From Kiritimatiellia bacterium (GTDB lineage Bacteria; Verrucomicrobiota; Kiritimatiellia; CAIVKH01): a stretch of DNA of 64,000 nt. The stretch covers positions 165 to 64,164 of the forward strand of contig DAOLCW010000006.1 of NCBI GenBank assembly GCA_035327665.1, read 5' to 3'. The position numbers and the translations under genes are program-made. The notes beneath the pieces were generated by a model. The model saw nothing but the letters and a program-made list of their open reading frames with translations, was not told the origin of the DNA and made no database searches. Numbering within the stretch: position 1 is the stretch's first letter; each line of letters starts with the position of its first letter. Positions 33,842-62,078 of the stretch are shown here, piece by piece.

Positions 33842-33945
33842 CCCGAAAAATACAGCCTTTGATATTCAACGGGTTACGAAGCTTTTTTTACTTTATCAAC
33901 GACTTACAGAAAAAATGAGGCGTTGAATAAGAAACTTGGGTTCAT

Positions 33946-34109
33946 CTGGTTGAAACCATCATGAGACCTTCAAAAAGTTCTCTTTAAATCTGGCTCAGAT
34001 TTCGCGCCGGCCTGAAAAATCACAACGCAACAGTTTTAAGTATAAGTTAAACTGTGAACCCGTCAGAACGCCCGGTGCAGGAGGCGAGGCGGCATGCCGA
34101 TGAGCGGTT
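33946..34109. repeat. ~165-bp direct repeat, copy A (3' flank of the giant gene)
   Basis: About 85% identical to 60320..60485. It starts CTGGTTGAAACC…ATGAGACCTTCAAA and has an identical 26-mer GTCAGAACGCCCGGTGCAGGAGGCGA. On the minus strand it contains the 10-codon mini-ORF MPPRLLHRAF (34063..34095). On the plus strand an AGGAGG is 9 nt before an ATG at the repeat end. Confidence 0.85.
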
Positions 34110-34181
34110 CTACATCGGGCATAATTCCAAAAAATCGTGAAGGTAGGACAGCATCCGTTGCCTGTGCGGGCCGGAATCTTT

Positions 34182-37100
34182 TCACTCCGGCAATGCCGTT
34201 TCGGCCTGCAGGCGCAGGAATTGCATTTGTTGCTGAACGGGAATAGACGCTTTCCACAATTCGCGTTGTTGTGCATCCGTTTGGCCCGTGAAGATGTTTT
34301 CAATCCCATGGACGGTCCAGTCGTCATTAACCGCTGTCGCCTTGGCAGGATCGAGGTAAACATTCACAGCGCGCGGATTCTTATAGTAGAGCATGATCAG
34401 CTTCATCGTGCCGTTTTCCGCCTCAATCGAACTGCTAAACAGATCAGCGGTGGCACAAGCCTCCATCGCATCGAGTCCGGCGGCAAATTTCATAAGGTTG
34501 GGTATTCCGTCTCCCATTGGAGAATCTTTAGCTCCGCGTAGATTTGGATCGGGGATGGATTCTGCCCACTCCGAAAAGGTCGTCGTTAGTTCGGCCGAGT
34601 CATATGAAAAACGAAGTCGCATGTGGGCCTTGGGCCCGGTAAGTGGCAGGCGCGCCTCCCAAACCTGATAGTCATCCGTCTCTTCAGCCTCCAGGTGATG
34701 CCGCTCAATGCCGGCTTGGCGCCAGAGCGGCGACACCAGTGATCCCGACCATTCCGGCAGGATAAACACATCAACTGCCTGCTTTGATTTCCTATAGCGT
34801 AGGATCAGATAATTGCCTTCCGATCGACTCACGAACAGGTCATCAGCTTTATGCGCTTCGGTCGGGGACAGGCCGACTGCATATTTGGCTAGGTTCGGAA
34901 TCTGATCGTCCATCGGACTGTCATAAGGCCCCCTTTGGGTTGAATCTACGATTTGCCTCGCCCACCTCTCGTAAGCCGTCAGATCGCTTTGATTTGTCAC
35001 CGTCAGGAAGATCGACTTGGTCGATTCACGGTTACCGGCCCTGTCGACACTGTAATAACTCAGTGAATAGATCCCGGGCGTATCATAGGTAATCACCCCC
35101 GCATAGTCGATCCATGTGTTCTGGCCATCATAACTGACCAAGATCTGATCGATCCCACTGGCATCATCCGTAGCGGTGAGATGGATCATGACGCCATCCA
35201 AGTAGGCCCCGCTGGACAATCGGGTTCCTTCAATCGCGTAGGCAGTGACCGGTGCGAGCCAGTCGGTGCGCGCCTCATAAATCACAGAATCGGAGGGCTC
35301 GCTGGCATTGCCCGCCGCATCGATGGCAACCGCGGTAAGCTCGTAATCCCCGTAAATAAGTTTGAGCTCGGAGGTGGTGAACAGGCCATTGGTACCGGTC
35401 ATTGCGGTTGCGATCAGAACCCCGTTGCTGTTGCTTATATAAACCTTCGTGCCGATTTCCGCCGCTCCGGTCAGGACGACGGTTCCGTTGCTTGATACAT
35501 GTAGCTGCAAGGTCGGCGGGGAAGGTGGGGTGAAATCAACCACGACGAAAAAGGTGAAGGGATGCTCGACATTCGCGCCGGTTACGGCATCTTCGCCCGT
35601 AACCGTAACATCCATCGAGTACGATCCATCGGCAGCGTTATCGGCCAAGTCAATGTTTACGCCAAGTCGTAGTCGCCCTCCGGCGGCGATTTGTTCCACC
35701 CCGTCCTCAAACGCGAAAACCAACAGTTCGGTAGCAAGCAAGTCGCCCGCAGCGGTGACCAAATCGCCCGCCATGATGTTCATATTGGTCACGCCATGCG
35801 TGCCGCCAACCTCAAGAATATCGGCTTGGATCAACACATTGCCTCGGCCAGTGAGCATGCCGTATACCGAATGACGCGTGTGCAGGCGGGCCTCAGCATC
35901 CTGCAGTTCTGAGGCGATCAGGGCAAACTGATCGGACGGATGCACGCGTACTCCGTTAACGTTTACCGTCCAGACCGATCCCGCTTTCACATTGCGAATC
36001 GTCACGAGCTGGCAGCGGCTGTCTGGGCCGGTAAACATAGCGTTGGGTATCTCGACCACCACGGCACCGGCATCGCTGTCATAGCCGGCATGGTGCCCGG
36101 CAGAATCATGCACATGTAAATCCATCACAGCGGCGGGATCATGCAGGAGCATAAAACGCAACGCACCGTCCTGGGTCGCGGTATACGTCACCGTGTGCAT
36201 CGTATCGGTGCCAAAATCCTGCTGTAAAAGGTGTCTCGGGATCGAGTCGGCCAATCCGTTCAGCCGCAATTCTGTTGCACTCTGAACCGTGGTGACCCAC
36301 GGCCCGTAGGAAGCCCGTGAAAGCGTGTCCTCTTCCCACAGTTCAAGCATGAGCTCAACATCGAATCCGAAGAGACTGTAGGTTTGCGCGTCCGGAAGCA
36401 GGATCCCGAAAGAAAGCGTTCCCGCATCGCCTGCGTCAAGTTTGATGTTTGGAAACTCCAGCGACAGCACCTTGCGTCCATCGGCGTAAAGATTGATGAG
36501 CGGGCGACCACTCCAGTCCAGCGTTCCATTGTTGGCCAGCGTGATTACTCCGGGGGTTAGCCTCATGCCGCGCTCATCCGGGAGAATCGCATTTGCGATT
36601 TCAAAGGAGAGGACTTCAACCGAGAGAACGGGGTCAATCGGCCGGTGTTCAATCAGGTACTGGATGTGTCCGGAGAAATCGCGCATGAAGGACCAAACCA
36701 CTCCAGCTTCCTGCTGATGGGCGGCGGTGTAGTCTTGGATGTCCCGGAAGAGGATTCTCAGGCCGATGCGCTCGGCCTCCTTCATGGAACTCATCGCCTG
36801 TTTATAGATTTCCATCGCCTCATTGACGGAGCTTTGGACCGAGTTGTTCACATGTCCGGCCATCTCTCCGAGGATGCCCCCACCCATGCCACCGACCATG
36901 CCGAGAGAGTCAAAAATGAATTTGGTCATGCTCAGTTCGGTGTATTCGGCGACCAATTCGGCATGGAACGCGATGTTATCCCACTGCATCTGCAAGTGCT
37001 TATAACTCCGGTAGAGCAGCGCCTTCACTTCACCGAGTTCATGCGCTTCCATAATCGGCGTGTTCCAATAGGGCGATGCGGTTCCCATGGCATACCAGAA

Positions 37101-40100
37101 TACCTGGGCGCGGTCTTCGGCATTTTCAAGCCCCGGAGTGGTCACCGTATTTGGCGTATACGGCGATCCACTGCGTTTCCCAGGATCATAGCTCACCAGG
37201 GTGGCGGTCATGCTGTGCAACTCTTGATAGAGAAGATCTATTGGGAAAATGGCGGAAACCTTGCTTTGCTGGAGGCTCCACAACTGAGATCGCAGGATCA
37301 TTCCCAGTGAGTCAATCGCGGCCAAATACATATCTAGCCCCGCGACTTTTTGTCCGGCGCCAAGGTGCCGCAACAACTGATAATCATTAAGGTCTTCCGG
37401 GAGGTTGTTGTGCATCGCGATGTATTCCATAAGACGACGGTAGTATTCGCGCGAATCAACAGAAGCATATTCGAGCTGTTTGCGAATTTCCTCCGTAGTT
37501 GGCGGCGTAGCATTGTTTAAGGTCGCCTGGGCGAGTCGTCCCAGGTTCTCCGTGAGATTCTCTTGGATCTGCTTCTGCGCGTGGAGGAGATCAACCATCG
37601 CGAGCAATTCCGAGTTCAATTTCACAACCGAATCGCCAACACTGGCAAAGCCAAGAAGATCGATCGATTTCAACGCGTCGTAATAACTCATGTCACCGCC
37701 ACCACTCGGATTGTTCATCTCCTCGCCATACTTGTTGGCGATTTCGCGACGTGCTTGCTCGGTGGCTTTTTCCAACAAAGAGAGCACTTTGTTCTCTTCA
37801 TCGTAGAATTCGGTTATGTCTTTGGCAAATGAGTGGATACCGAACACAAGGTCCTTGATCGAATAGATCACCGAAATCATCTGGTTGACGGTTTCCGTGA
37901 CGATTTGTAATTGGCCGAGATAGGCCATTTCATGAATGATGTCTTCGGTTTCCGAGTAGATTTGCGCAAGGTGCCAGAATTCGTTTTCAACCTTGTTTTC
38001 AAGGGCGCGGATCAAGTCGTCTACCAGATCCAGCAGTTCGGCAATGGTGTGTTCGGTGCGAAATTCGTGGGTAACCGGGGCCTGAATCCATTCACCCTGC
38101 TCCCCGAGCATCATCGGACTGAATGTCTTGATCTGGCTGAGCACCTCGGTGGCGTGCAGATCGCTGCTGAAGGTGAGATTCCAGGTAAACTCCGCAGTTT
38201 CGTTTGGAGCCAGCACGTCAACCGTTCGCGAGGAGCTTGTGGCGGTATCGCTGATCACGGCATCCCGCATCGCGGGAAGTTCTATCTTCACGTTGTACGC
38301 ATTTCCTTGCCCGCTGTTGGTGACGCGGGCGGTGAGCGTACCGCTGCGGTTTCCGGTTTGTTTAAACGAATAACTGATCTGAATGGAGGGTGACGGCTGC
38401 ACGACGAACCCAACGTTCTGCTCATAGGGAATCCGTGCGTTGCCAAAAAGGGTGACGCCTTCAATGCGCGCGGTGTAAGGCGTCCCGCCGGATGTTCCGT
38501 CGGCGAGTGAGGGGTCGTTCACCAGCACCTTCCAAGCCGACCGCCGCGACTGCATGGCCGGAATGGCCTCTGCAGTGATATCGGACTGCTGCTGGATGCG
38601 GAAACGATGAGTCACCTCCACGCCGTTCGCATCATAGATCCGCAGGATACAGCTTTCCACCTGCAACGCCTGATCCGGCATCTGGTTGCGCACGGCGCTT
38701 TCCAGGATGAAGGACTGGCCGGCGGCGAGTACCTTTTGGCTGATCGAAGCCATCAGTCCGGCCTCTTCGGTTCCGTCGATTGCCGCCGCATTTTCCCGAT
38801 CCAAGCCGAGCCAGAGCGGGAGCGTATCCATGCCGACCGGGCAGCGGCGACCCATCCAATCGGTATAAAAGACGTATTCGTACGGTACACCGTTCTGCCT
38901 GTCGAAGGTGTCGGCAAGGCGTATCCGGATGTGATAGTTTGCCTCGAAGCCTTGCAACGTGAAGATGTGGATGATCCCGTCGAGAACCAAGTCTTTTCCG
39001 GCCTGTGCCTGCAGGGCCAGCAATCCGTTCACATCCAGATCCCAATTGATCACGGTGGTGGCGCGCGGAGCCATCATGAGGTGCAGCAGGTTGCCCTCAA
39101 TAAATGTGTTGCGAATGTGGATGTAGGGGGCCAGCTCGCCCTTCAAGACCAGCGCGACACCGATCAGGTACTCATCGCTATCGTTCGAGAAGGAGAACTG
39201 TCCGCGCTGGTTGAAGCGATCAAACTCCGGCACTAGCTCATCCATTTCCGCTGGCACCCCTGCCCCACCGAGAATCAGGGCAAACTCGCGCCCTGGGCGG
39301 TAAAGCCTCAGCGGATTTACCGCATTGCCTTCCAGCACCAGATTCAGACGGGCTTCGCCATAGCTTTCAAGCTCCTGTGAAGCCGTCCTCTGCAGTGTGA
39401 TGCCGAACGGTTCAACCCTCACAACAATGTCGTGTGTTTCGGTTTCTCCAGTTACGAAGAAGCTTCCTTCCAAGCCACTGTAGGGATAGGCGCTGCCGAT
39501 CAGTACGTTGTAGGCGCAACGGCCTGGTGGCAGATTCATCATTACCGTTCCCTTCGCGACGGTGGTGGTTCCAGTGCGCTCCACACCTCCGGAGCGGAAC
39601 AGGATGCGCTGTCCAGGCAGCGGATTCTCAAATTGATCCACCAGGCGGCAAAGGACATAATATTCGTGGGCGGGCGATTTCAACCGCAGCTCCAGCGGCT
39701 GTTCGGCACGATAGCCTTCGCCGGATTCGGCCGTGAGCTTCATCGGATACGTCGCTCCGCTTACCGATGATCTGAAGGTTTCCAGTTCGAGGCGGGCCAC
39801 CGCCGCCTGCCCGGGGGCAATATTTCCAAGTTTGCTGGGCGTGATGACGATCCATGGGTAATTGGTGCATACCAGCTCAACGTTGGTCAGCACCTCATCG
39901 GTATGGTTCGTAACCACCACATCGATGAGCACCTTGCGTTCGGCGCCAACGGTCAAACTATCCGTGTACGCCTCTTTCGGAATCGTGTGATCCAACATCG
40001 TCCCGTTAAAGATCAGGGCATCCTGCAACTCGATACCCAGCGTCTTGCGCTCAGTCGCAGAGAAGACGAACCAGGCCGACGTGGTCAGGTTGCTTTCCCC

Positions 40101-52100: not shown

Positions 52101-55100
52101 CGCCACCAAATGCCGTGAAGCAATGACCGAAAAGGTGTAAGACGGTGAAGTGGACACAACCTCGTCCGTGGCCCCTTCGCGCCACTCCACAAAACTGCAG
52201 TACGCCGCCGGATTGGCGGTCAGCGTGCCGGCGATCCCGTAGGACCACAACCCCGCTCCGCTGACCGTGCCGAGACCCGCAGGCGATATCGTCACCGTCA
52301 CCGCGAACTGGGTCCGTTCGAACTCCGCCACGAGTGTTCCGCTGCCCTGTACCGCGAACGAATGGCTCGGTGAATAACTCACCACCTGACCGTTGAATAG
52401 CCACCTCCGGAAAACATACTTTTCCGGATCCCCGACCGTGGCCATCGCCGAAAAATACTCGTTTCCATAAAGCGAGGCGCCCGGCGTGACACTCCCGGCA
52501 TCCGGCGGCTGCACCGCCGTTTCGATCGTGTAGAGCGTCATCTCGCTGGGAAGCTCGGGAGCCTGCACCACCCGGAAGGTTGCGGTGCGCCCGGCCCCCG
52601 CGACCACGATCCACGCCATCCGCTCGGCGCTGGTATCGTTCAAATCCAGACTGTAGGTCAACGTCCCGCTGCCTGTTCCCGACGCGCCGCCGGTGATCGT
52701 GAGCCATGGCGCCGTCTTCGTGGCGGTCCAGCCGTGGTTGCTCTCGACCTCGAGCGCGTTTCCGGCGGAGGCTGCGCCGACGTGCTCGCGGTAGTGCGGC
52801 GCCACCGAGAGAAACGCCGGTGCGCCAGCCTGCCGGATCGCCACCGTGCGACTCAGCCCGCCTCCCGCAATCGTCACCACGCCATCGCGCGCATCCAGCG
52901 ACGGGTTCGGCTGGACCCGGTAATGCACAGTACCCGCTCCGGAACCGGTCGTATCACCGGTCAGTTCCAACCAGGCCGCACTACTCGACGCAGTCCACTC
53001 CACGTTGCCGCATACTTCGATAACGTGTCCCCCCGAGGCGGAGGCGTCGTGATCACCTTGCTCGGGGACAACCACTAACAAGGCGCGCTGCTCGATCTGG
53101 AAGACGCGCACCGCCCCCGCGCCGGCGATCACCGTGATCGTTCCACTGCGCGGCGCGCCGAAGGTGTTTGCGGCCAGGCTGAACCGAACGACCCCGTCGC
53201 CGACGCCGCTCGCATTCCCGTCAATCGTGATCCATCCGGAACTGGCGGTTGCCGTCCATGTCATGTTTCCGGTCACGCGCAGCGATTGCCCGGTCACGGC
53301 GGCGTTGCCAAAGGCGCGGTGGCTTTCCGCCAGTGCGATCGTCCGGGGCGTGTCGCGGTGATACGGATAGCTCTGCCCGGCATCAATCGTCCAGACATCC
53401 ACAAAATTCCAGCCGCTAAAGGTCCCCGCCTGTTGCAGCGCTTCGGTCGCCAGTCCCGTGCCGCCGCCCGAGCTGCTCTCCTGCCCCGAGGTGCCCGTGT
53501 CCCAGAAACAATCCGTGATGTTTCCGGTGTGGCGGTAGCCAATTAATCCACCCAACCCGGACGACCCGCTCACCGCGCCAAAACTGAAGCCGCGATCCAC
53601 GTTGCCCCAGTACCCCCCACTACCCCCCGCATACCCCACCAGCCCGCCGACATTGTAACCACCCCCGACTGCGGCCCCGCTGTAGCAGTCCGCGATCGTT
53701 CCCTGACGATGCCAACCGACCAGCCCGCCCGCCGTTTCGGTAAACGCCCGCACCCGCCCCAGACTGTAGCACTGGGACAGGATCGGCGAACTGAAGGTAT
53801 AGCCTACCAGGCCGCCCACATATCGCCCGCCGCCGACCTCCATGATCGCCGAGACGCGACGGACTTGCGCCGTTTGCAGATCGCCGATCACGCCACCGAT
53901 GTTGTCCGTCTGCCCGCGAACCGTGGCCGTCACGGCGACGTCCTCCACCAGTCCCGCACCGGTCATCTGACCGGCCAGCGCGCCGAGCGTGGACAGCCCG
54001 TGAACGTGCGCGTTTTCCAGACGCAACGAGCGCACGGTCGCGGCCCCGAGGTAGCCGAAGAGTCCCTGCCCGGCGGAAACCGGACGGTTGATCGTCAGAT
54101 TGCGGAGCGCGAACCCGGCCCCGTCCAAGGTGCCCGTGAAACGCGCTTCGGACGTCCCCACCGGCAGCCAGCCCTGCCCGGCATTCCAGATCGTGGTGTC
54201 CGCCAGGTCGATGTCCTGCGCCAGCCGATAGTGCGCCCCGGGCGCCAGCCGCATCGCGTTCAGTTCCGAGGCATTGTGCAGCACATAAGGACTGAGCTCG
54301 GTGCCCTGACCTTGCAGGTCTTCCAGCGCAACCGCATCGGGCGGGACATAACCCCTGAAATCCTGAAACGCCGGGTAGCCCTCGCCCCCATCTATCCGCC
54401 AGACCGTGTCAAAATTGAAGAAGGCGTAGTTCTCGCGCGTCCACATTGCCGTCGTCGTGCGACCCTGTGCGCCGCTCCCTCCCGCGCTGGTCTCCCGTCC
54501 TGAGGTCTCGGTATCCCAGAAGCTGTCCGTGACGTTGCCGGTGTGATGGGTGCCAATCAGACCGCCAACACTGGATCCACCACTGACTGCGCCGACACTG
54601 AAGCAGCGATGCATATTGCCCCAGTATCCCGAATTGCCACCCCAGCCCACCAGTCCGCCGACATTCGCTGGACCCGTAACGTCCGCGCCGCTGTAGCAGT
54701 CCGCAAGCGTCCCGGAACGATGATAACCGGAAAGCCCACCGATCGTGTTTCCGGTGCCCGCCACCTGACCGAACGCGGCGCTGTGGCGGACCTGAACTCC
54801 GCCATCCGTGTATCCGACCAACCCGCCCACATGGGAGACACCCTGCACGCGGACGTCCGCGGTCGCTCGATGGATTGTGCCTCCGTTCACATACCCCACC
54901 AATCCGCCGATTTCGCTGTTGTGCCCGCGGACGAGTCCTGCGACCGACACGTTATCGATCGTGCTGGTGTCCGCGCGTCCAGCGAGGATACCGACATAGC
55001 GGTTGCCATAGACCGTCACCCCCTCCAGCCGGAGGTCGCGCACGGTTGCGTTCTGCAGATAACCAAAGTATCCCTGATAATCCGACTCGGGCCGGTTGAT

Positions 55101-58100
55101 CGTCAGGTTGCGGATCGCGTAGCCCCCGCCATCGAAGGTGCCGGTGAAGGGGGCGCTCGACGTCCCGATCGGAATCCAGCCGGAGCCCGCGTTCCAGATC
55201 GTTGAATCCGAAAGGTCGAGGTCGCCTCCGAGGCGGTAGTGGGCGGCAAGGTTCTGGCCCATCGCCCGCAACGCCGCCGGCGTCGTGATTAGATAGGGGT
55301 CTTCGACCGTGCCGGCGCCGTCCAAATCGCCCAGCGCCACCTCGGGCGGCTCCACATATCCCGCGATGCGCTGCAGCGTCGGATAGTCAATGCCTTCCTC
55401 GATCCGCCAGATGCTCTGGAAGTTGAAGACCCCATAGGTGGCCTGCTGCTTCATCTGCTCGGTGGTGCGGGCCGCTCCGCCCGCACTAACGCTCAAACCC
55501 GACACCATTTCATCCCAGAACCCGTCCGCCTCGGTGCTGCCGTAGTTTCGCCCGACATACCCGCCCACATTACTGTTGCCCGAGACGGGTCCGGCGCTGT
55601 AGCCGCGCCGCAGGCGGCTGTAGTAGAGATAGCCGACCAGCCCGCCCACATCGCTCGCACCGGTAACCGCCGCCCGGCTGTAACAGTCGCTGACGATCTG
55701 ACCATACTGATACCCCACCACGCCCCCGACCTGATTGCGCCCCGTCACCGACCCCCGTGCAGAACTCTGGATCAGCGAACCGGCGCTACTCGACATATAA
55801 CCAACCAGCCCGCCCACCCGGTCACGCCCCCGCACCGAGGCACCCACCGATGAGGCAAACAGCCTTCCTCCATTGAGCCGTCCCACCACTCCGCCCCCGT
55901 CATCCACGGTATTCACCTGCCCAACCCCGTCAATTCGCGCCAGAGCGCAATTCTCCGCCCACCCCACCAGCGCCGCCGTGTAGTGCTGCCCCTGCACAGA
56001 CGCCTGCTCAAAGACCACCCCCTCGATCACGGCATCCTGCGCATAGGCGAACAACCCCTGGTAATCCGTCGTGGACCGGTTGATCGCGAGATTGCGCAGA
56101 ATGAATCCGGCGCCATTAAACCGACCCCGAAAGCGGTCCGCCGCCGCAGACCCGCCGACCGGCGTCCAACCCCGACCACCATCCCAGGCGACCGTGGCGG
56201 TCAGGTCGATATTCGCCGCCAACTGGTAGTGCGCATGCAGGCCGTGACGCATGGCATCCAGTTCCTGAACATTGGTGATCAGGTACGGCGAAGCAGCCGT
56301 GCCCTCCCCTTGCAGCGCAGCGGTCGTCAGATTCTGCCGTCTGGCCAAAGAACTCAAGTCGTTCAACTCCGGGTAGCCCGCGCCCTCTTCGATCGACCAG
56401 AGCGTGAAGAAATTCCAATTCCGGAACGTGACGCGCTGGCGGAGCATAGCGCTCGGCAAACCGGCTCCGGCCGGACTCGTCTCCCTGCCCGAGGTACCCG
56501 TGTCCCAGTAGCAGTCAGCTTCCGAACCCCCGTAATTGCGCCCCACGAAACCCCCGATATCCGATCCCGTGCCAGTCACCAGCCCTGAACTGTAGCTCCG
56601 CCGCACCGGGGCATAGTACAAATACCCAATCAACCCGCCGACGATGCTGCCGCCCTCGACCTCCGCCCAACTGAAGCAATCGGAAACCATGGCATAATTG
56701 GCTTGCACTCCGACCAGACCTCCAACGGAGGACGTACCGCGGACCGCGCCTTTGGCGGCGCTGTGATAGAGCGTCACCGCGGATCCATCAAGACGCCCTG
56801 CGACGCCTCCGATCTCAGTTGATCCCTGGACGGTCGCATCAACCATCACCCCGTGCAGCGCGCTGCTGCCCCCCGCATGTCCGATTGCGCCGCCGGTGTA
56901 GGTGCCGCCCTGCACCGCACCCGTGACCGTCACCCGGTCTACCAGGCTGGCCCCCGTGGTCGCGCCCGCCAGCGCTCCCACGTAGGCCGCTCCCTGCACG
57001 GCGGCATCCTCCAGTGCCAGATGCTGCACAACCGCCCCGTTCAAAACGCCGAACAGTCCCTGGTAGTTGGTGCCCGGGCGCGCAATGGTCAGCCCCTGAA
57101 TCGCATGCCCATTCCCGTTCAGCCGACCATGGAAAGCGTTTGCGGAGGTCCCGACCGGAACCCACCCCGCGCCCTCGTTCCAGGGGGCGATACCAAGGTC
57201 GATATCCTCGACCAACCGGAAATGCTGCTCCCAGAACACCGAGCCCAGAAACTCCCGCAGGTTGTTCAACTGCGCCGGCGTCGCGATCTGCCAGGGATTT
57301 TCTTCCCGCCCCGTCCCATCCAGAAACAGGTGCACCGCGCCACGCGGCACATCGGCCCGACCCGCAGTGTCGCGCACCGTGACCTCGAACTTCAGAAACC
57401 GCCCCGCGTCCGCCTCAGTCTGCACCCAGGTCGCGCCGGTGGCTCCGGGGATCAGATCGAAGGGACCGTTCGCGGCCAGCCCCCGGTACCACTGGAAGGT
57501 CGTGCCCAACTCGGTGTCGCCGGCATCGCCCGGATGGTAGACGTAGTGTCCGGTGAGCGTGTTGCCGACACCATCGCGTCCCGTCACCCGCACCGGATGG
57601 GCCCACGGCGCTACGAGGGACACCCCGACGATGTGCCCGGACTCGCCCGCGAGCAGGTACGGCTCGCTGTACTGGCCCTCGTGACCAATACCCCAGGTCG
57701 TCGCGAAATCCCAGCCCACGTAGGTCGACTGCAGCACCATTTGCTCCGCCGGCTTGCCCCCGTGGCCGCCGTCGCCGGCGCTCGTGGTCCGACCCGAGGT
57801 CGTCACGTTCCAGTAGGAGCGCTCGATCCGCGTGCCCGCCGTGGCCGACCCGACCAGCCCGCCTACGTTGTTCGCGCCACTGACTGCCCCGACGCTGTAG
57901 CACTCAATCACGCGACCGCCGGCCAGGCTCCCGACAAGCCCACCGATCAGCCCCGTGCCCTGTGCCGCTCCACGCGCGTAGCTCTGCTCGACCCAGGCCC
58001 GGTCTCCGGCCATCTCGCCAACCAGCCCGCCCACGCGCTGCGCCCCCGTAGCCGATCCCAACGCGAGCGAGCGCAACACCTGGCTGTTCTCGTGGTACCC

Positions 58101-60263
58101 GACCAACCCGCCGACACTATTGCCCGTGCCGGTCACCGCGCCCGTGGCGTAGCTATCCACGATGCGGCCATTGATGTTGTGATTGCCGACGAGCCCCCCG
58201 ACGAGCGTCGTGCCGCTGACGTCGCCCGTGGCGAAGCACTCGACCACCTGGCAATCCTCCCAACTCTGCCCGGCAAGTCCGCCGATGCGCTCGCTCGACC
58301 CAATGACCGTCGCGCTGGAGGAACTGAACTCGATACGGCTCCCATATTGCGATGCCCCCACCAGCCCGCCAGAGCGGGTCCGCGCCGAAATCGTCCCGGC
58401 CGACGTACATCCCGATACGACACCGCCGTACTCGATCTGGCCCGCCAGCCCGCCGCTGCGGTCGCGCGCGTTAATGTCGAATCCGACGACGTGCAGCCGC
58501 TCAAGGCGCCCGCCGTTGACGTACCCGAACAGCCCCTGAAAATCGGTCGTAGCCCGGTTGATGAACAATCCGGAGACCGAGAAGCCGTCCCCGTCATAGG
58601 TCCCCAGGAACCCGGCGGTACTCGTCCCGATCGGCACCCACCCCTCGCCCTCGTTCCAGGGCGCGACTCCAAGATCGACGTCGGCGGTTTGCCGGAAATG
58701 GGCGCTGGGATTGTAACGAACCGCGTTGAGATGTTTCGCGCTGGCCACGAGATACGGACTCTCGACGCTGCCGTTGCCGCCCGCGAATCCCGCTGCACCA
58801 GGCGACGAAGCAAGGTTGTACAAATGGAGAATTTCTACCTCGCTTAAAGGCCGGTCGTAAATGCGTATATCATCGATGACGCCGTCAAACATATAGGTGG
58901 ACGAACTGCCCGCGTGTGCGGTGGCAATATACAGGGGCAAGCTCGAGCAGGTCAGCGAACCCGTTCGATTGGTGGTCGAGGAAAGCACGCCATTCACGTA
59001 AAGCCGTATCTGAGTGCCGTCATAGGTCGCGGTGACAAGGTGCCATTCGCTGGCATCGTGGGTGCTCGTGGAGCCCAGTCCGGTTTGTGTCCCGTCCAGT
59101 GTCATCCGCGTGAACGGCTGCTTGGTGTTCCGGGCGTACTCGAGAAGATAGGTCGTGTAGGGGGACGCGGTGTTGTGAAATCTCTTTTCGATGATCCGGC
59201 CGTTCGCATTCCCGCCCGAGGGTTTGATCCACGCGGATAGGGTAAGATGTTCCGGACAGAGCGCGGCGTCGTTCGTGACAACCATGTAGTCGCTGACCCC
59301 GTTGAACAGAAAGGCTGAACCAGGATTACCAAAACGGTCGGCAACAAGCTGCGGAGCGCCAATAACCGTCGCGTGGCGTCCGTTTCCACTCGCATCCTGA
59401 GTATTCCCGTCAAAGGGTAAATGGACAATCAGCCCCTCGTTCACATTGGTGCTCCCCGGCCCTTGGGCGGGTCCCCGCACAACGGCAACCGAATCCGCGA
59501 CGGACTGCCCGGCGCTGTTGGTGCCGGAGGCGGTGATGACGTTGGTGCCGACAGCGAGCAGGCTGGAGAAGGACCACGAGGACGCCACCGCCACTGCGCC
59601 ATTCGCGCCGTTCAGGTTGTTGGTCCAGCGGATCTGTCCAGTGAGGTTGGAGGAGATGCCGCCGATGGTCAGGTTGCTGATGCTGTGGCCGACGCTCTGG
59701 TTGGCGTTGGTGATGTCGAGATAGGGCGTCGTTGGCGGGGGCGACTCGGCGATCATTTTATCCAACGGGTCAGAATCCATACCGCCGCTGCCCAGGTCAT
59801 ATTCCGTAGGTGGTGACATCGGTGGGTTCCAGGCAGCCTCGAGCAGAGGACCATCGTAATAAAATTCGCCGGGCACAGGCATCATGCTTTCAAAGACCCG
59901 TCCGAAGACTACGGTCGTAGTGTTAGGTCCGGACGCGGAATAGAGGCCGTAAATACCGTTTGCCAAAGGGCTAAAACCAAAAATACTCAGGGTAGCCGAC
60001 GACAACAGGATGTCGTCGCCGCCCAGCCAACCCTCCGGGTTGGCGGGGTCGACCGGATCAATCTCGCCGTTGAGGCCGGCATCGATGAGTTGCGCGACCA
60101 CCGGACCTTCCATCAAAAGCGGGGTAACACCATCCGATTTGTAGAAACCCAACATGCTTCCCCATAAGATGGAAATCTCGTTTTGGGCGCATACCGGATA
60201 GATGCCCACCCCTGTGCCAAAAAGTATAAACAACCCAGCGAGTTTGATCCAGCGAGCGTTCAT
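34182..60263 (-). CDS. giant secreted multidomain adhesin-like protein (8,693 aa)
   Basis: A single ORF with no stop, starting at ATG 60263 with AAGGAGG 8 nt upstream, and a signal peptide (MNARWIKLAGLFILFGTGVGIYPVCAQ). By eye the architecture is: an N-terminal Ig-like region; a LamG domain (~58.8–59.4 kb: LIVHLPFDG…WHLVTATYDGTQIRLYVNG…FDGVIDDIRIYDRPLS); five ~340-aa modules rich in GLUG-type (V/I)GGLVG repeats, each opening with a conserved PY(L/V)I…L…A…HY(R/Q)L…D(I/L)DL…W…GWxP(V/I)G…F.G.(F/L)(D/N)G.G head (~53.4–58.8 kb); three BACON-like domains (~52.3–53.3 kb); InlB-B-repeat-like domains (~51.6–52.3 kb); a He_PIG/cadherin-like region (~51.0–51.5 kb); a long run of CARDB, FN3, PKD and Ig-like domains (~38.1–50.9 kb); an ~470-aa alpha-helical segment (~36.6–38.1 kb); and C-terminal Ig-like domains ending in two tandem DSPM(D/G)DxIPNLxK(Y/F)A(V/A)GL modules (~34.2–34.9 kb). 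Confidence 0.9.
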   Translation of the reverse strand: MNARWIKLAGLFILFGTGVGIYPVCAQNEISILWGSMLGFYKSDGVTPLLMEGPVVAQLIDAGLNGEIDPVDPANPEGWLGGDDILLSSATLSIFGFSPLANGIYGLYSASGPNTTTVVFGRVFESMMPVPGEFYYDGPLLEAAWNPPMSPPTEYDLGSGGMDSDPLDKMIAESPPPTTPYLDITNANQSVGHSISNLTIGGISSNLTGQIRWTNNLNGANGAVAVASSWSFSSLLAVGTNVITASGTNSAGQSVADSVAVVRGPAQGPGSTNVNEGLIVHLPFDGNTQDASGNGRHATVIGAPQLVADRFGNPGSAFLFNGVSDYMVVTNDAALCPEHLTLSAWIKPSGGNANGRIIEKRFHNTASPYTTYLLEYARNTKQPFTRMTLDGTQTGLGSTSTHDASEWHLVTATYDGTQIRLYVNGVLSSTTNRTGSLTCSSLPLYIATAHAGSSSTYMFDGVIDDIRIYDRPLSEVEILHLYNLASSPGAAGFAGGNGSVESPYLVASAKHLNAVRYNPSAHFRQTADVDLGVAPWNEGEGWVPIGTSTAGFLGTYDGDGFSVSGLFINRATTDFQGLFGYVNGGRLERLHVVGFDINARDRSGGLAGQIEYGGVVSGCTSAGTISARTRSGGLVGASQYGSRIEFSSSSATVIGSSERIGGLAGQSWEDCQVVECFATGDVSGTTLVGGLVGNHNINGRIVDSYATGAVTGTGNSVGGLVGYHENSQVLRSLALGSATGAQRVGGLVGEMAGDRAWVEQSYARGAAQGTGLIGGLVGSLAGGRVIECYSVGAVSGANNVGGLVGSATAGTRIERSYWNVTTSGRTTSAGDGGHGGKPAEQMVLQSTYVGWDFATTWGIGHEGQYSEPYLLAGESGHIVGVSLVAPWAHPVRVTGRDGVGNTLTGHYVYHPGDAGDTELGTTFQWYRGLAANGPFDLIPGATGATWVQTEADAGRFLKFEVTVRDTAGRADVPRGAVHLFLDGTGREENPWQIATPAQLNNLREFLGSVFWEQHFRLVEDIDLGIAPWNEGAGWVPVGTSANAFHGRLNGNGHAIQGLTIARPGTNYQGLFGVLNGAVVQHLALEDAAVQGAAYVGALAGATTGASLVDRVTVTGAVQGGTYTGGAIGHAGGSSALHGVMVDATVQGSTEIGGVAGRLDGSAVTLYHSAAKGAVRGTSSVGGLVGVQANYAMVSDCFSWAEVEGGSIVGGLIGYLYYAPVRRSYSSGLVTGTGSDIGGFVGRNYGGSEADCYWDTGTSGRETSPAGAGLPSAMLRQRVTFRNWNFFTLWSIEEGAGYPELNDLSSLARRQNLTTAALQGEGTAASPYLITNVQELDAMRHGLHAHYQLAANIDLTATVAWDGGRGWTPVGGSAAADRFRGRFNGAGFILRNLAINRSTTDYQGLFAYAQDAVIEGVVFEQASVQGQHYTAALVGWAENCALARIDGVGQVNTVDDGGGVVGRLNGGRLFASSVGASVRGRDRVGGLVGYMSSSAGSLIQSSARGSVTGRNQVGGVVGYQYGQIVSDCYSRAAVTGASDVGGLVGYLYYSRLRRGYSAGPVSGNSNVGGYVGRNYGSTEADGFWDEMVSGLSVSAGGAARTTEQMKQQATYGVFNFQSIWRIEEGIDYPTLQRIAGYVEPPEVALGDLDGAGTVEDPYLITTPAALRAMGQNLAAHYRLGGDLDLSDSTIWNAGSGWIPIGTSSAPFTGTFDGGGYAIRNLTINRPESDYQGYFGYLQNATVRDLRLEGVTVYGNRYVGILAGRADTSTIDNVSVAGLVRGHNSEIGGLVGYVNGGTIHRATADVRVQGVSHVGGLVGYTDGGVQVRHSAAFGQVAGTGNTIGGLSGYHRSGTLADCYSGADVTGPANVGGLVGWGGNSGYWGNMHRCFSVGAVSGGSSVGGLIGTHHTGNVTDSFWDTETSGRETSAGGSGAQGRTTTAMWTRENYAFFNFDTVWRIDGGEGYPAFQDFRGYVPPDAVALEDLQGQGTELSPYVLHNASELNAMRLAPGAHYRLAQDIDLADTTIWNAGQGWLPVGTSEARFTGTLDGAGFALRNLTINRPVSAGQGLFGYLGAATVRSLRLENAHVHGLSTLGALAGQMTGAGLVEDVAVTATVRGQTDNIGGVIGDLQTAQVRRVSAIMEVGGGRYVGGLVGYTFSSPILSQCYSLGRVRAFTETAGGLVGWHRQGTIADCYSGAAVGGGYNVGGLVGYAGGSGGYWGNVDRGFSFGAVSGSSGLGGLIGYRHTGNITDCFWDTGTSGQESSSGGGTGLATEALQQAGTFSGWNFVDVWTIDAGQSYPYHRDTPRTIALAESHRAFGNAAVTGQSLRVTGNMTWTATASSGWITIDGNASGVGDGVVRFSLAANTFGAPRSGTITVIAGAGAVRVFQIEQRALLVVVPEQGDHDASASGGHVIEVCGNVEWTASSSAAWLELTGDTTGSGAGTVHYRVQPNPSLDARDGVVTIAGGGLSRTVAIRQAGAPAFLSVAPHYREHVGAASAGNALEVESNHGWTATKTAPWLTITGGASGTGSGTLTYSLDLNDTSAERMAWIVVAGAGRTATFRVVQAPELPSEMTLYTIETAVQPPDAGSVTPGASLYGNEYFSAMATVGDPEKYVFRRWLFNGQVVSYSPSHSFAVQGSGTLVAEFERTQFAVTVTISPAGLGTVSGAGLWSYGIAGTLTANPAAYCSFVEWREGATDEVVSTSPSYTFSVIASRHLVAVFEEDVKEHEVTTATLPPGLAMIPGAGTWTNGQTATFVAPAMILKDDQRYVFQRFTRNGTHASNQSTWNWTLTRADPAVVLVQAEYQVYDMSPAVREVRRTFDSPVPATDTQVVTLVFDRTMDTGEIPLAVMRRRSDSAERVLSTQGGQWLNIYTTQDAYRYDPLTLVPADDGEYDLTVSGARDNYGVPMEPTNVWTFVVHGTPPTLTLPDLPTEINELVLFEFPAQGADGVPGNPLVFSLTAAPAGAAIHPQSGLFSWTPSERQGPGSYTFGVRLDDGLGHAIQTVTIDVLEVNRPPTLNAIPDRTIQGETALSFQAVGSDPDISAGDLQQSLTYRLEGNVPAGAAMTSSGYFTWTPTGAQIPGEYTMDVVVSDGESEARRSFTIYTFDRPDVTVTQLELPSLAPMEGAAVRLRARIDNIGGGDLLQGIYVGFYVNGNFIGNQWISSSTLPKGQYAWVERIWTAVPGTHTIEVRADYLNQVQESREDNNSLSETLAEILVPDIAVTHASWLPESINEGEKVRFFFDVTNLGGATARDVDVHLNVDGAWVASDRIRGPFGNRTESLVLEWTATPGPHSVEIVADRHGKISEINRTNNVVQISLDPIQDTLPPTFTSLVPGNGQRIRGVFALHVAATDISGISRYQIESSLDELFWTTLHEGAAGTGSWDTTVLADGVYAVRFSAEDTKGNIQQVTHRVTVDNTPPAAVTLSAQPIEFGAVLNWTKPAESDYSFCRIFRAASPEGPFVQLNATIYSQSSYTDRPLSPGMSYSYVVRAYDVAGNVSDDSNVVTVTPNGDQSPPEIRSLSPAENSAHNAIIHLLADIRDNVGVTLVRYEFTERPAGSYALSDLIWTNLCEGTAMSCDWDVTELPTGRYLIRLTAWDAAGLSSSLVRTYLVDHQPPGSVGAVTIQRRELALAVAWNSPGDSDLVGYRLSRQVNGGAFTVLKERLTSTLYVDMNLQPDVLYAYRVEAEDMLGQFGAPSDSPAVTTLSDTTAPILVGVMPQAWSRHSGAINLALLAKDNDAIATGAFWYRLVGNANWLECSGTPQALWQAEQRHWRIQQTWNPDGLPDGEIEIRARAEDRSNNSLETTFILVRDTEAPAAPQGLSATDPQTGSSIQLSWSANGESDLAHYRIYRRVSGESGWQPAGSSSSESFTVESLQSDQAYQFAVSAVDLAGNESPLSDISELATTTRADLTIQSLVFDPRTPAQGRLGHIVARVLNRGPARAQVTVRFYVSNGGAEEQVGIQHLWLNGLASADVRCPWIPQNGGSQTIRAVAVVVAPALDPTPGDNELSREVLVNHPPVAMAGSDRSVDWYEELAFDGSGSSDADGRIMEYLWTLGDGKTKRGMNVVHRYEAVGVHTVTLTVTDDRGVSSTDSILVTVADTRADLIVEKITWMPGEPEEGDEITIIATIRNQGNGPTRNAFFATYYISGVYHGYVIVHDRIAAGDAVDVTFRWTALKGLHTVKVVADDLINAVNELSEVNNDNQVHMTFQQIHFPDLLIAEMTCPVPAVITSQEALKATLTVQNAGTADAEKIFVALYQNGKMISRKPLPDLAASGTLTTTFDVMPVNGTNTLTAMVDGPVSLIVESDETNNSYTLELGDLTVEHPDLQLELTVQPDEEEMAHGSWIDMSATVKNLSAVGLLQTAPVDFYVNGRRVGTREIRHLAPGASKTVAFQVLATEGVHEIRVVVNENQTIAESDYSNNEQRHTTKEIRILYSDLTVGNVSWFTQHGGPVKYGDSLIVTFNLSNLSLVSSYARSSVILLVNGRQVSKLEIGSIRGYETVQTGLMWKNVDVDPTVSHTLAVQVDPENVIPEENEANNIATAAIQLSIQDGLIVDAKLDREADEVFGIPIYISSETCRVSARASYASAPKAWLDTSAGQTMTLSLIYTPGVVIQPGELPYYPDPETLYDDVPMLYDLLASRFNLELPLASFNETGNYSVRITYNDGALSRSQTLPFMVIQDCTIHMEPSSPRVLAGERLVISGRVLDLQGLPIADETLLLAIFEGEDGFGDMANPALAALANMASDVTTAKVKTSPTGEFTYLHRTLRGQSGMYTVTGYLISSVVAASGTCNFEILNAGFDSPGANITMPKNYTHSKTVTLRNSSIRALTNVRVDLSEVVAANGIEARLVSSVPSVLSAGQAVQLTVVLEAEEVADDAGQFRLSFSCNEGIERTYDLNVTLLDSGPSIRFSESMLKLGMNPGDTLFRRVTATNRGLGTLKNFTVSGAPNLPWVTVNYSGIRNLEPGAALELEVVVQPYAATGLGLYRDYITLSDENNISFRMGIEIELTSATRGGVSFTVGNDAGRLIERAEVRLISKETTPVINPDGSTAGQRYEVFIDRTDAAGRVMFEDIPTGAYTYSINSSGHESVKGEVEIMPSSLPVLISETLTATPITYTWSVTPITIEDRYEIILDISLRIDNLNKPSIVSLPPWATIAQTVEQGYSDRLIFVNQGDLALRNVRVEVIGDPKLINSLSLAGGGDIGIIEAGESVQLAYYIAPGTYEDLKGGSRFKLTGTYRALDQKTGEFADFGVTNQVPIYNPAADRTATIRVPGFQDEKVKMPDFGDGEQEFDGLPKLQDEDSDRVSVAVKLQIPQEATLEREGFEAVLTFRNGLSDDLVGFSVAPRVFDAANRDVTSAFYIVQPSLSGGLSAADGSQTLAGGTEFTASWILVPGVGLGGEDPAGKKYYVEAAATYSQAGQFREFNTHSEEITVHPQPLLELFYYLPEKILANTPFRLGVFVENHGFGEAKNFRIKSGQPKITENESGVPLQMEIVGSSFGAGNVETKEWAVEFGDVAALGWARGYWITRCNLDATVTEFTAELVHLPFKGVQLNPLITAVHTEIILGDFLFADEIDPNNSFSLIDRDDNGIPDYLINLHTGLRQDIIVPDELQVTQAPTIEAPQMTFTIPATNGFVCMVLNDPLVSINIRGIQRHHLDGSGAIHQLSGNNFWRDGEILYIVDRIGQIVNGQPVGMPVTYVIDYQSALEIRKLEIGTFVFNTLMANADDKTLGRYAQTHWWEDYRDDDGFGVIEYGLGSIANKVPLYNSPLPIIAGDEGGVRIELYNRGVSPESGDIGVYLIDAQGGETLVATAQVEELRSYRTQTVELVFDTTTDGLYTLEVRFLDTRTEGNASRQFRINARPVSDAGLDQTVKLGKPVRFNSSRSYDPDGVVVNYQWYMDDRRLDVDGKETGGKWIAGPVPSYTFADSGTYKVLLVVTDYDGAMEEDKMLVTVEETRPDLYVASFGHGQAEVLDGQLLTVSVGIGNAAEDLPPDAKFYVSLYAGEKLVDTRLVTGGLPAGQTGTISFDYIASMSEPFLTVVLDDMGSRVNEANEWNNVDTLAIFADQVVFADLVAENVRLSVAPGEPVNWGRPIQVLADIGNRGDINADKPFRISAYVDGIYLGHSALDQLETNATETVSFTWVPTPGEHLVEVIADWPHSHIRESNENNNRAALTVNKNNLNLILPNLVLQQLTFEPENGQLASGVPVLVTASIFNHSAVSLPFGSEVVMTVNGQTVARRAVAPIAAGHFTAALLTWNDPWPGTHDIKVSLDPGRLWYETDVSDNVLLVKKTFSITQGDLTVRQVVVPPAASAGVETRLGINIANRGLGRISKPFNARLFADEQPVAVERFNLLLLPGQTFWWNPVWVADETMAGNTVTLRVEVDTLDEIDESDETNNSYEASVLIEQGLKVVMDLDKTVSLPGDVVEVVIDVLDTKTMQRVPAANVAVSVVMRDANGTDMQIVSGAFDNGWSAMLPTAGIDAGKYGVQAVARGDGKTYVSASRSLVLVEELVVECAAPERVLLGEAFAITGRVSTIGGQGQSSRSVFVRVEPVSTNEPIFLPAITDASGNFEVTLQATKALAGELGISAQAVGADLLGMIFRSSSQTAMVFGLESLVSPMVIAGHLNEAAPFSLTVEAVGADVQIESVAFIPDPEGMGADGVVANLDAVVPSGLIPDGETRIFSGTVTSTQVCGHLLVEARMACRIGESNLTTSAWFVFSATERKTLGIELQDALIFNGTMLDHTIPKEAYTDSLTVGAERKVLIDVVVTNHTDEVLTNVELVCTNYPWIVITPSKLGNIAPGQAAVARLELETFRSSVSGATYPMKLTAESGEGYRAEQPLELRLKSPAHEYYVLCRLVDQFENPLPGQRILFRSGGVERTGTTTVAKGTVMMNLPPGRCAYNVLIGSAYPYSGLEGSFFVTGETETHDIVVRVEPFGITLQRTASQELESYGEARLNLVLEGNAVNPLRLYRPGREFALILGGAGVPAEMDELVPEFDRFNQRGQFSFSNDSDEYLIGVALVLKGELAPYIHIRNTFIEGNLLHLMMAPRATTVINWDLDVNGLLALQAQAGKDLVLDGIIHIFTLQGFEANYHIRIRLADTFDRQNGVPYEYVFYTDWMGRRCPVGMDTLPLWLGLDRENAAAIDGTEEAGLMASISQKVLAAGQSFILESAVRNQMPDQALQVESCILRIYDANGVEVTHRFRIQQQSDITAEAIPAMQSRRSAWKVLVNDPSLADGTSGGTPYTARIEGVTLFGNARIPYEQNVGFVVQPSPSIQISYSFKQTGNRSGTLTARVTNSGQGNAYNVKIELPAMRDAVISDTATSSSRTVDVLAPNETAEFTWNLTFSSDLHATEVLSQIKTFSPMMLGEQGEWIQAPVTHEFRTEHTIAELLDLVDDLIRALENKVENEFWHLAQIYSETEDIIHEMAYLGQLQIVTETVNQMISVIYSIKDLVFGIHSFAKDITEFYDEENKVLSLLEKATEQARREIANKYGEEMNNPSGGGDMSYYDALKSIDLLGFASVGDSVVKLNSELLAMVDLLHAQKQIQENLTENLGRLAQATLNNATPPTTEEIRKQLEYASVDSREYYRRLMEYIAMHNNLPEDLNDYQLLRHLGAGQKVAGLDMYLAAIDSLGMILRSQLWSLQQSKVSAIFPIDLLYQELHSMTATLVSYDPGKRSGSPYTPNTVTTPGLENAEDRAQVFWYAMGTASPYWNTPIMEAHELGEVKALLYRSYKHLQMQWDNIAFHAELVAEYTELSMTKFIFDSLGMVGGMGGGILGEMAGHVNNSVQSSVNEAMEIYKQAMSSMKEAERIGLRILFRDIQDYTAAHQQEAGVVWSFMRDFSGHIQYLIEHRPIDPVLSVEVLSFEIANAILPDERGMRLTPGVITLANNGTLDWSGRPLINLYADGRKVLSLEFPNIKLDAGDAGTLSFGILLPDAQTYSLFGFDVELMLELWEEDTLSRASYGPWVTTVQSATELRLNGLADSIPRHLLQQDFGTDTMHTVTYTATQDGALRFMLLHDPAAVMDLHVHDSAGHHAGYDSDAGAVVVEIPNAMFTGPDSRCQLVTIRNVKAGSVWTVNVNGVRVHPSDQFALIASELQDAEARLHTRHSVYGMLTGRGNVLIQADILEVGGTHGVTNMNIMAGDLVTAAGDLLATELLVFAFEDGVEQIAAGGRLRLGVNIDLADNAADGSYSMDVTVTGEDAVTGANVEHPFTFFVVVDFTPPSPPTLQLHVSSNGTVVLTGAAEIGTKVYISNSNGVLIATAMTGTNGLFTTSELKLIYGDYELTAVAIDAAGNASEPSDSVIYEARTDWLAPVTAYAIEGTRLSSGAYLDGVMIHLTATDDASGIDQILVSYDGQNTWIDYAGVITYDTPGIYSLSYYSVDRAGNRESTKSIFLTVTNQSDLTAYERWARQIVDSTQRGPYDSPMDDQIPNLAKYAVGLSPTEAHKADDLFVSRSEGNYLILRYRKSKQAVDVFILPEWSGSLVSPLWRQAGIERHHLEAEETDDYQVWEARLPLTGPKAHMRLRFSYDSAELTTTFSEWAESIPDPNLRGAKDSPMGDGIPNLMKFAAGLDAMEACATADLFSSSIEAENGTMKLIMLYYKNPRAVNVYLDPAKATAVNDDWTVHGIENIFTGQTDAQQRELWKASIPVQQQMQFLRLQAETALPE

Positions 60264-60319
60264 GGCGCGACCTCCTTGGCACGACCGTCGGATCGTTCCG
60301 ACACCTTCCGTGCATTGCC

Positions 60320-60485
60320 CTGGTTGAAACCGTTCATGAGACCTTCAAACCGTTCTCTTTGAATCCGGCTTCAGTTTCGCGCCGCCATGAAAAAGCACAA
60401 CGCGACAGTTTTAACTTTATGTTAAACGATGGAACCGTCAGAACGCCCGGTGCAGGAGGCGACGCGGCATGGTCGATAAGCGGTT
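60320..60485. repeat. ~165-bp direct repeat, copy B (5' leader side of the giant gene)
   Basis: Homologous to 33946..34109, with the same conserved 26-mer at 60436-60461. The minus-strand mini-ORF reads MPRRLLHRAF (60438..60470). The repeat ends 56 nt upstream of the giant gene's start codon. Confidence 0.85.
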
Positions 60486-60498
60486 GGATGGGCGCTGG

Positions 60499-60882
60499 TC
60501 AACACCCAGGCTTGCACATCGGGCAAAATTCCCGACCGGCGCAGATGAGCTGGCAGGGCGAAACGCCAAACAACCGAGACAGCAGGATAAGATTGCCGCC
60601 CGAGGGAAAACGGATGCCATGCTCCCAATCGCTCACCGTGGCGGCGGTTACGGAAAGTTCAAACGCCACCCGCTTGAGCGGCCATCTGCGGCTCGTGCGA
60701 AATCCTTTTAGGCGCCGCCCGATGAGCTGCTCGTATTCTGCGGGCGAGGGACTGAGGGGTTTGGAATCATCCCTGCGGGGCGGGTTTTCGAGAGCCGCGA
60801 CCGGTTGGAGGGTCCCCGGGAGGTTCTCCTGCCGGAAACCTTTTTGGATTTTTATCCCTTCCGCCTTCTTGCCGTTGCTCAT
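60499..60882 (-). CDS. XRE-family (Cro/C1-type HTH) transcriptional regulator
   Basis: ATG at 60882. HTH_XRE signature LIGRRLKGFRTSRRWPLKRVAFELSVTAATVSDWEHGIRFPSGGNLILLSRLFGVSPCQL. A Cys-rich C-terminus follows. It is encoded directly upstream of the giant gene and co-oriented with it. Confidence 0.7.
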   Translation of the reverse strand: MSNGKKAEGIKIQKGFRQENLPGTLQPVAALENPPRRDDSKPLSPSPAEYEQLIGRRLKGFRTSRRWPLKRVAFELSVTAATVSDWEHGIRFPSGGNLILLSRLFGVSPCQLICAGREFCPMCKPGC

Positions 60883-61193: not shown

Positions 61194-61237
61194 TCCTCAG
61201 CGGCGCGGCGCCGCGCCGCATCCCTCTGTTCGGCATC

Positions 61238-62058: not shown

Positions 62059-62078
62059 CTTGTTTGAAAGCCGGGAAA

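Follow-up and report, generated by a model that had tools for sequence, protein, structure and literature searches.

A direct repeat on both sides of a giant adhesin-like gene in a Kiritimatiellia genomic island: possibly a control region and its relic duplicate

Several described systems share something with the repeat pair around a giant gene that is the subject of this work. In Yersinia pestis, the pgm locus is flanked by copies of IS100 and is deleted through these flanking direct repeats at a measurable frequency. On the side of gene control, 5′ untranslated regions (UTRs) which mask a Shine-Dalgarno sequence (SD) with an upstream anti-SD are a form of translational riboregulation. In islands of the Haloquadratum walsbyi type, exchange is reportedly ascribed to homologous recombination in the conserved core genes that flank them. 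The cell-wall island of this organism is a variable island with a giant cell-surface gene, of which multiple versions occur in natural populations (PMC4535781). Genomic islands, too, can have direct repeats at their two ends, and these are 16-20 bp long with perfect or near-perfect identity (PMC2704930). Here, we focus on a 64-kb stretch of DNA from a Kiritimatiellia bacterium (contig DAOLCW010000006.1, assembly GCA_035327665.1), referred to as the window, in which a single giant gene lies between two copies of a repeat. The repeat is called R, its copy beyond the 3′ end of the gene A, and its copy in front of the gene B (Table 1).

That the giant gene is bracketed by direct repeats, one in its 5′ leader and the other just past its stop codon, was the original prediction. 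Both copies were indeed found at these places, and their similarity is longer than first noted. Globally aligned, A and B are direct copies with 165 of 191 positions identical (86%) and 36 gap columns; because the BLAST E-value of the pair is about 2e-48, this similarity is not a matter of chance. Relative to A, B has a 30-nt insertion, beyond which a 16-nt block (CATCGGGCAWAATTCC) matches again. On one side B ends 56 nt upstream of the giant-gene ATG, and on the other it overlaps the final 37 nt of the open reading frame (ORF) of a helix-turn-helix (HTH) protein. Sixteen nucleotides of A match the last codons of this HTH gene, and with this piece of a 3′ coding end retained in A, it is probable that A was copied from a B-like sequence. 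The perfectly conserved 26-mer of the original prediction is actually a 28-mer, which is also identical in the copy of a relative from the JGI metagenome collection and which is present only twice in the window, even allowing 3 mismatches. At 86% identity, however, a perfect 28-nt run arises in 30% of permutations of the mismatch positions (P = 0.30). The run is thus to be expected and by itself gives no evidence of constraint.

Further copies of R were looked for at several levels. Within the same genome the search covered about 73 kb, namely the window and an extra 9.2 kb of the same contig, and a profile made of A, B and the JGI copy found no third R there. Against 185,579 species genomes, the core 20-mer had 10 matches, none of which extended beyond 20-35 nt; they are therefore at the level of chance. 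The core 21-mer together with a second conserved block gave 0 matches in JGI metagenome contigs, and the core 21-mer gave 0 matches in viral contigs. A blastn search of B against plasmids and phages returned nothing, and the longest open frame of R, translated and compared with 1.84 billion proteins, had only low-complexity matches in long repetitive proteins. With no copies elsewhere in the scanned collections, the element appears as restricted to this lineage. The original prediction had allowed that R might turn up at many unrelated loci; two copies in 73 kb and none in the public scans do not point that way. Moreover, the copies are placed symmetrically around a single gene, each about 55 nt from one of its ends, which makes independent insertions of a dispersed element unlikely. 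R is, in short, a lineage-restricted non-coding segment of about 190-225 nt.

Table 1. Features of the repeat pair, the giant gene and the surrounding island, in window coordinates.
Feature	Position	Strand	Remark
Copy A (R-A)	33936/33946-34127	-	Starts 54 nt past the giant-gene stop
Copy B (R-B)	60310/60320-60535	-	Intergenic leader between HTH gene and giant gene
Identical 28-nt block	34060-34087; twin in B 60435-60462		Identical in A, B and JGI copy; CCUCCU in sense RNA
Composite palindrome TTGAA-N4-TCATGA-N4-TTCAA	33950-33973; twin 60324-60348 (N5/N4 spacing)		Invariant in three copies
Imperfect palindrome GTTTAAC-N5-STTAAAAC (GTTTAAC-N5-GTTAAAAC)	34033-34052; twin 60408-60427	-	Conserved in three copies
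Mini-ORF MPPRLLHRAF-stop	34063-34095; twin MPRRLLHRAF-stop in B 60438-60470	-	In A
Unique spacer	60264-60309	-	Giant gene's AAGGAGG (60271-60277) and small hairpin 60291-60306
Giant gene, 8693 aa	34182-60263	-	One uninterrupted ORF; signal-peptide-like N-terminus
XRE/DicA-like HTH protein, 127 aa	60499-60882	-	Directly upstream of R-B
Island of foreign composition (~29 kb)	~32850-62150		GC skew ~0 inside
HicB-like antitoxin	32910-33128	-	Left end of island
Tyrosine-recombinase pseudogene fragment	33401-33841	+	Pfam Phage_integrase positions 4-122 of 172
MazF/PemK toxin	61238-61570	-	In island, outside repeats
Ribbon-helix-helix (RHH) antitoxin	61567-61797/61818	-	In island, outside repeats
tRNA-Glu(CTC) and tRNA-Asn(GTT)	61983-62153	-	Right island border

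The explanation that we favor, with a probability of roughly 0.45, is that B is the working 5′ control region of the giant gene and that A is a relic duplicate left by recombination in an acquired island. As the intergenic control region, B would join the gene of the DicA-like HTH regulator to the giant gene. It probably holds a putative promoter or operator, to which the two conserved palindromes and a weakly matching -35/-10 pair would belong, and would also form the first part of a long giant-gene 5′ UTR, in which the CCUCCU core could pair with the SD and AUG of the giant gene. A, which has no ribosome-binding site (RBS) or gene after it, would have nothing to control. Most likely, it is a partial duplicate of a B-like region, left when the giant-gene module was assembled or exchanged in the island. 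This could have come about in two ways. Either a circular molecule carrying the giant gene integrated by a single crossover (Campbell-type) in R, or the module was duplicated in tandem and then partly deleted, with the loss of the 3′ end of the integrase gene next to it as well; such a deletion may be the same event that truncated this neighbor. The pair would today be mainly a scar. At best, RecA-type recombination could use it at low efficiency to loop out or exchange the 26-kb gene, since 14% mismatch and only one perfect block of 28 nt would render loop-out inefficient.

The control function proposed for B draws on three features kept in all copies of R. The first is the composite palindrome, a candidate site for protein binding. 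The second, the imperfect palindrome, overlaps the -10 element of a weak sigma70-like match (CTGACG-16-TATACT). The third is the CCUCCU core. In minimum free energy (MFE) folds of the whole leader, for the window as well as for the JGI relative, the core (CAUGCCGCGUCGCCUCCU) is predicted to pair with AGGAGGUCGCGCCAUG of the giant gene, comprising its SD and AUG, and masking of the SD by the core is offered as a hypothesis on the strength of these folds. The opposite strand of each copy carries the AGGAGG-N9-ATG motif just as it had been described. It can be explained as the mirror image of the anti-SD/anti-start stretch. Coding on this strand was considered and rejected: the ORFs that follow the motif shift frame after one codon and are unrelated between the copies, and the longest open frame through R has about 14 amino-acid changes in 45 codons and stops in A. 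SD-ATG motifs and mini-ORFs inside repeats can, and this serves as a warning, be by-products of an anti-SD stretch.

Between B and the giant gene lies a spacer which is the most divergent stretch in comparison with the JGI relative. Its small hairpin (GUCGGA-ACGA-UCCGAC) is found 14 nt upstream of the giant-gene SD, and its pairing is kept in the relative (at about 1172-1187 of the contig named below) through a double change from U-A to C-G. By eye, no ops/JUMPstart-like elements were seen in R. A XerD-like half-site in B (TTATGTTAAAC), also noticed by eye as an apparent near match to the XerD arm of E. coli dif, was discarded, as it has no plausible XerC arm and is not conserved in A or in the JGI copy.

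The proposed history of R draws on a single relative. Among 5.8 billion proteins, only one homologue of the HTH protein was found; it is 97% identical and encoded on a 1.2-kb JGI contig, L017, which is Ga0495035_116396 of sample 3300045563. This contig is collinear with window positions 61023-60250 and runs through the HTH gene and a B copy into a giant-like gene, of which it has the RBS and the first codons, reading MKAR.. where the window has MNAR... Upstream of 61023 it is unrelated to the window. From the end of homology at this position it follows that the HTH-R-giant module has different upstream neighbors in the two lineages. Positions 1-458 of L017, the part unrelated to the window, are rich in hairpins and contain a long inverted repeat (CTGGAGGGTC...GACCCTCCAG).

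Along the collinear part, divergence is anything but even. The HTH coding sequence differs from that of L017 at 6 of 381 positions, with only 1 of the differences synonymous, and the 68 nt that extend from the HTH stop through the core show no differences. The gene-proximal half of R differs at 9 of 114 positions and the unique spacer before the ATG at 16 of 56. The contrast between the first two segments and the last two is highly significant (Fisher P = 3.5e-10). In other words, the HTH gene and distal B are about 99-100% identical between window and relative, whereas the gene-proximal half and the spacer differ by 8-29%. Divergence of 8-29% next to synonymous divergence of about 1% is not explained by relaxed constraint, and argues for different histories on the two sides of the core. 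The comparison thus indicates a mosaic boundary at the R core. When A is used as the outgroup, window B has 11 lineage-specific changes and the JGI B has 2 (P = 0.011), all of them in the proximal half. The similarity between A and JGI B also reaches about 10 nt further than that between A and window B, and the JGI B takes a position between A and window B. Such uneven lineage-specific changes, taken with the longer similarity between A and JGI B, indicate recombination or gene conversion within R.

The gene enclosed by the repeats codes for a protein with many CARDB domains together with LamG, GLUG, M26_N, BACON, PKD, FN3, Big and an OmpL47-type barrel, and on this domain content it looks like an adhesin or surface-layer protein. 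Its N-terminus gave matches to LamG domains only. For the C-terminal 400 aa, three homologue loci with 52-57% identity could be retrieved with their flanking DNA. One of them comes from a Tichowtungia metagenome-assembled genome (MAG), also of the Kiritimatiellales, and one adjoins transposase and ribosomal protein genes. None of the three 3′ flanks has any similarity to R, from which it appears that the 3′ copy is not intrinsic to this gene family. The locus of the window itself is represented in ERZ794930, ERZ794927 and Logan contigs of SRR2107180/SRR2107181, all identical to it outside the internal modules of the giant gene. The giant protein, 8693 aa in the window, has 9335 aa at the same locus in L001 (ERZ794930 NODE_122). 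The differences are all in tandem GLUG-type modules of about 1 kb each (window 52400-56900), which are 95-97% identical and shifted in register, and reflect either copy-number variation or assembly collapse of repeats.

A number of points weigh against reading B as a control region and A as its relic. The promoter match is weak, with 9/12 in A and a score below threshold in B. Simple autoregulation by the HTH protein would predict an R-like palindrome upstream of its own gene, but none is present there, nor are there R-like palindromes elsewhere in the window. Compared with shuffled leaders, the SD-masking duplex is unremarkable in the window (P = 0.25) and marginal in the JGI contig L017 (P = 0.03). 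The mosaic argument depends on one 1.2-kb contig, and what this contig shows of the relative is its B and the first codons of a giant-like gene, neither a copy A nor the giant gene itself. Finally, the search for extra copies in this genome spanned only the 73 kb mentioned above.

Much of the same evidence would fit an explanation in which the two copies are the recombination handles of a mobile giant-gene cassette, which we hold to be doubtful. By recombination of A with B, the gene and one R would be released as a circle of about 26.4 kb, and the circle could then integrate beside any resident HTH-R unit, thereby swapping giant-gene alleles. The symmetric geometry, with R about 55 nt from each gene end, is what one would expect of such handles, and so is the mosaic boundary at the core with 8-29% divergence on the side of the giant gene and about 1% on the side of the HTH gene. 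The intermediate state of the JGI B, the different context of the module in L017 and the C-terminal homologues of the giant protein in unrelated genomic contexts also agree with a cassette. In E. coli, about 28 nt of perfect identity are close to the minimum for efficient homologous recombination, and the repeats possess an identical core of this very length. However, divergence of 14% strongly depresses homologous recombination, no intact recombinase is located nearby, and no other R was found in the scanned collections. The homologous giant genes (52-57% C-terminal identity) are without R downstream. No junction or circle was seen in contigs carrying the flanks: among the few contigs with the HTH, integrase-fragment or LspA genes, no junction with a single R was present and all show the filled state. 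The original suggestion of R as a substrate for recombination is therefore plausible in view of the mosaic boundary, while no contig with the corresponding deletion junction was found. If R were an active site of exchange or excision, it would provide a concrete mechanism for the population-level turnover of giant surface proteins.

Going further, R and the DicA-like HTH gene together might be a docking site for exchangeable giant surface-protein genes, in which the 26-kb gene has a non-coding handle of about 200 nt at either end. We consider this improbable. If true, whole alleles would be excised, swapped or lost at the conserved core, giving rise to surface variation in Kiritimatiellia populations.

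The notion of att-like boundaries, put forward in the original prediction, requires a look at the island in which the module resides. Outside the island, the GC skew is -0.25 to -0.47 in both flanks, whichever strand the genes use, and inside it is lost (Table 1). From left to right, the island holds the HicB-like gene, the recombinase fragment, A, the giant gene, B, the HTH gene and the MazF/RHH pair. The loss of skew, the tRNAs, the truncated integrase and the toxin-antitoxin genes are classical marks of a horizontally acquired, tRNA-adjacent island (PMC2704930). The repeats are internal to the island, lying 1.0 and 1.6 kb inside the GC-skew borders, and enclose only the giant gene to the exclusion of the integrase fragment. 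The tRNA region shares no word of at least 9 nt with the left border or the copy A region, and terminal repeats at the ends of the module (33.8-33.96 kb compared with 60.96-61.09 kb) did not rise above chance. The C-terminal third of the Phage_integrase domain holds the catalytic His-x-x-Arg and Tyr. It is this third of the domain model that the fragment lacks; the fragment is convergent with the giant gene and outside the repeats.

Against this background, it is very unlikely that the copies of R are attL and attR of a site-specific element or attC-like integron sites served by the adjacent tyrosine recombinase. The recombinase fragment does lie only about 100 nt from A, the core is identical with imperfect similarity on either side, and B reaches into a gene at its 3′ end, which is also the case with elements that restore the gene they target. 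The part of the original suggestion which stands is that the giant gene is in a foreign, tRNA-adjacent island with an integrase remnant. The remainder does not agree with attachment sites: the one integrase present is a fragment (positions 4-122 of 172) outside the repeats, which are themselves 1.0-1.6 kb away from the compositional borders, and the similarity of 14% divergent copies runs on both sides of the core over about 190 nt. As for attC, neither RYYYAAC/GTTRRRY sites at the ends of R nor a long imperfect palindrome were found, only small local hairpins, and the integrase fragment scores 16.4 bits against the TIGR02249 integron-integrase model, for which the cut-off is 265.

An equally slim chance is left for R as a cis-regulatory RNA or leader-peptide attenuator, duplicated to act as both a 5′ leader and a 3′ element. 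The two 10-codon mini-ORFs are present as they had been described, and that of the JGI copy is likewise intact; in addition, the core overlaps the complement of the giant gene's RBS. Yet no purine-rich SD was found within 15 nt upstream of the mini-ORF ATG in either copy, and the sole substitution between A and B within it is non-synonymous. With no such signal in the sequence of either copy, the mini-ORF is probably untranslated. No terminator-like hairpin with a T-run was found between the HTH and giant genes or anywhere in 59900-62300, nor was a terminator or antiterminator found between the two genes. A scan of the whole window at the Rfam gathering thresholds gave the two tRNAs only, and permissive Rfam scans (E ≤ 10) of both copies gave nothing apart from one noise match. 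The RNA folds of both strands of both copies have z-scores of -1.2 to +1.6, which are not significant, and those of the attenuator test are -0.5 and -1.2. The consensus fold (alifold) of A, B and the JGI copy has a covariation term of +1.37, a positive value, and 1 compensatory pair in three sequences only, and covariation is accordingly taken as absent. The duplex of core and SD is no better than in shuffles, and A does not have a downstream RBS to regulate. The leader-peptide or attenuator reading of the original prediction thus found no footing in these analyses.

Least likely of all is a dispersed non-autonomous element of the MITE or REP (repetitive extragenic palindromic) kind that came to lie on both sides of the gene by accident. 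In favor of it are the shortness of R, its non-coding nature and its many small palindromes (DNA-fold z-scores of -2.4 and -2.9). Against it, no terminal inverted repeats were found, and the sequences that flank A and B have no bases in common that could be target-site duplications. The 73 kb searched contain just these 2 copies, each placed about 55 nt away from an end of the giant gene, and the public collections scanned contain none. The protein search with the translated R gave low-complexity noise only.

Some further features of the region may be mentioned. The host DNA on either side of the island (window 1-33000 and 62150-64000) has an unusually strong plus-strand GC skew that is independent of gene orientation. 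Where the island's foreign composition begins on the left, three palindromic hairpins of about 18 nt each (TTTCCAAGGTTTGGAAACC-like) follow one another roughly 30 nt apart between the stop of hicB and the start of a dksA-like gene (32816-32896), and two Logan contigs break close by at 32906. A similar TTTTCCAAACCCTGGAAA hairpin follows a giant-gene homologue in L018 (at about 2700), and the TTTCCAAGGTTTGGAAACC-like hairpins may be a REP-like or terminator motif of the Kiritimatiellia. The adjoining DksA/TraR zinc-finger protein (31811-32767, minus strand) has an N-terminal extension of about 150 aa, which is rich in Lys, Ala and Pro and histone H1-like. Between the end of the truncated integrase and copy A lies an AT-rich segment of about 100 nt (33842-33945, GC about 0.35-0.45), likely the site of a rearrangement breakpoint. 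On the other side of the module, a 104-aa ORF (60879-61193, minus strand) in the region of 60883-61237 spans position 61023, where the JGI homology ends. It has no Pfam match, is uncalled in public assemblies and is probably not a gene.

How, then, does the locus compare with the systems described at the outset? Like the pgm locus of Y. pestis, it has direct repeats that bracket a large locus for a surface or virulence function and that could loop it out. The repeats of pgm are identical, kilobase-sized insertion sequences, in contrast to 190 nt with 14% mismatch and a perfect block of 28 nt here, and deletion has been observed there, whereas no deletion variant was seen here in contigs carrying the flanks. 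The leader of the giant gene resembles the SD-masking 5′ UTRs in that pairing of its CCUCCU, which lies some 170 nt upstream, with AGGAGG and AUG is predicted in the window as in the relative. It is unlike them in that this pairing is statistically unremarkable and without covariation, and in that copy A has the anti-SD but no partner for it. In H. walsbyi-type islands, as far as we are aware, no short non-coding repeat is copied on both sides of the cargo, and in this the present locus differs. The two are alike in having a giant cell-surface gene in a variable island (PMC4535781), and also in a change from near-identical DNA to a sharply divergent allele, seen here between the window and L017. 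With the tRNA-associated islands, the locus shares the foreign signature (here the GC skew), the adjacent tRNA, a cryptic integrase and toxin-antitoxin genes, as well as a surface-protein cargo and the presence of direct repeats (PMC2704930). In contrast to the repeats of those islands (PMC2704930), R is about 190 nt long, 86% identical and situated inside the island, and it brackets one gene only and excludes the integrase. If B is indeed the working control region and A its relic, the locus would illustrate, on a small scale but clearly, how an island of an uncultured Kiritimatiellia lineage carries and reshuffles a giant adhesin-like gene. The phenomenon as such belongs to known kinds, namely the direct duplication of a segment and homologous exchange within a genomic island.

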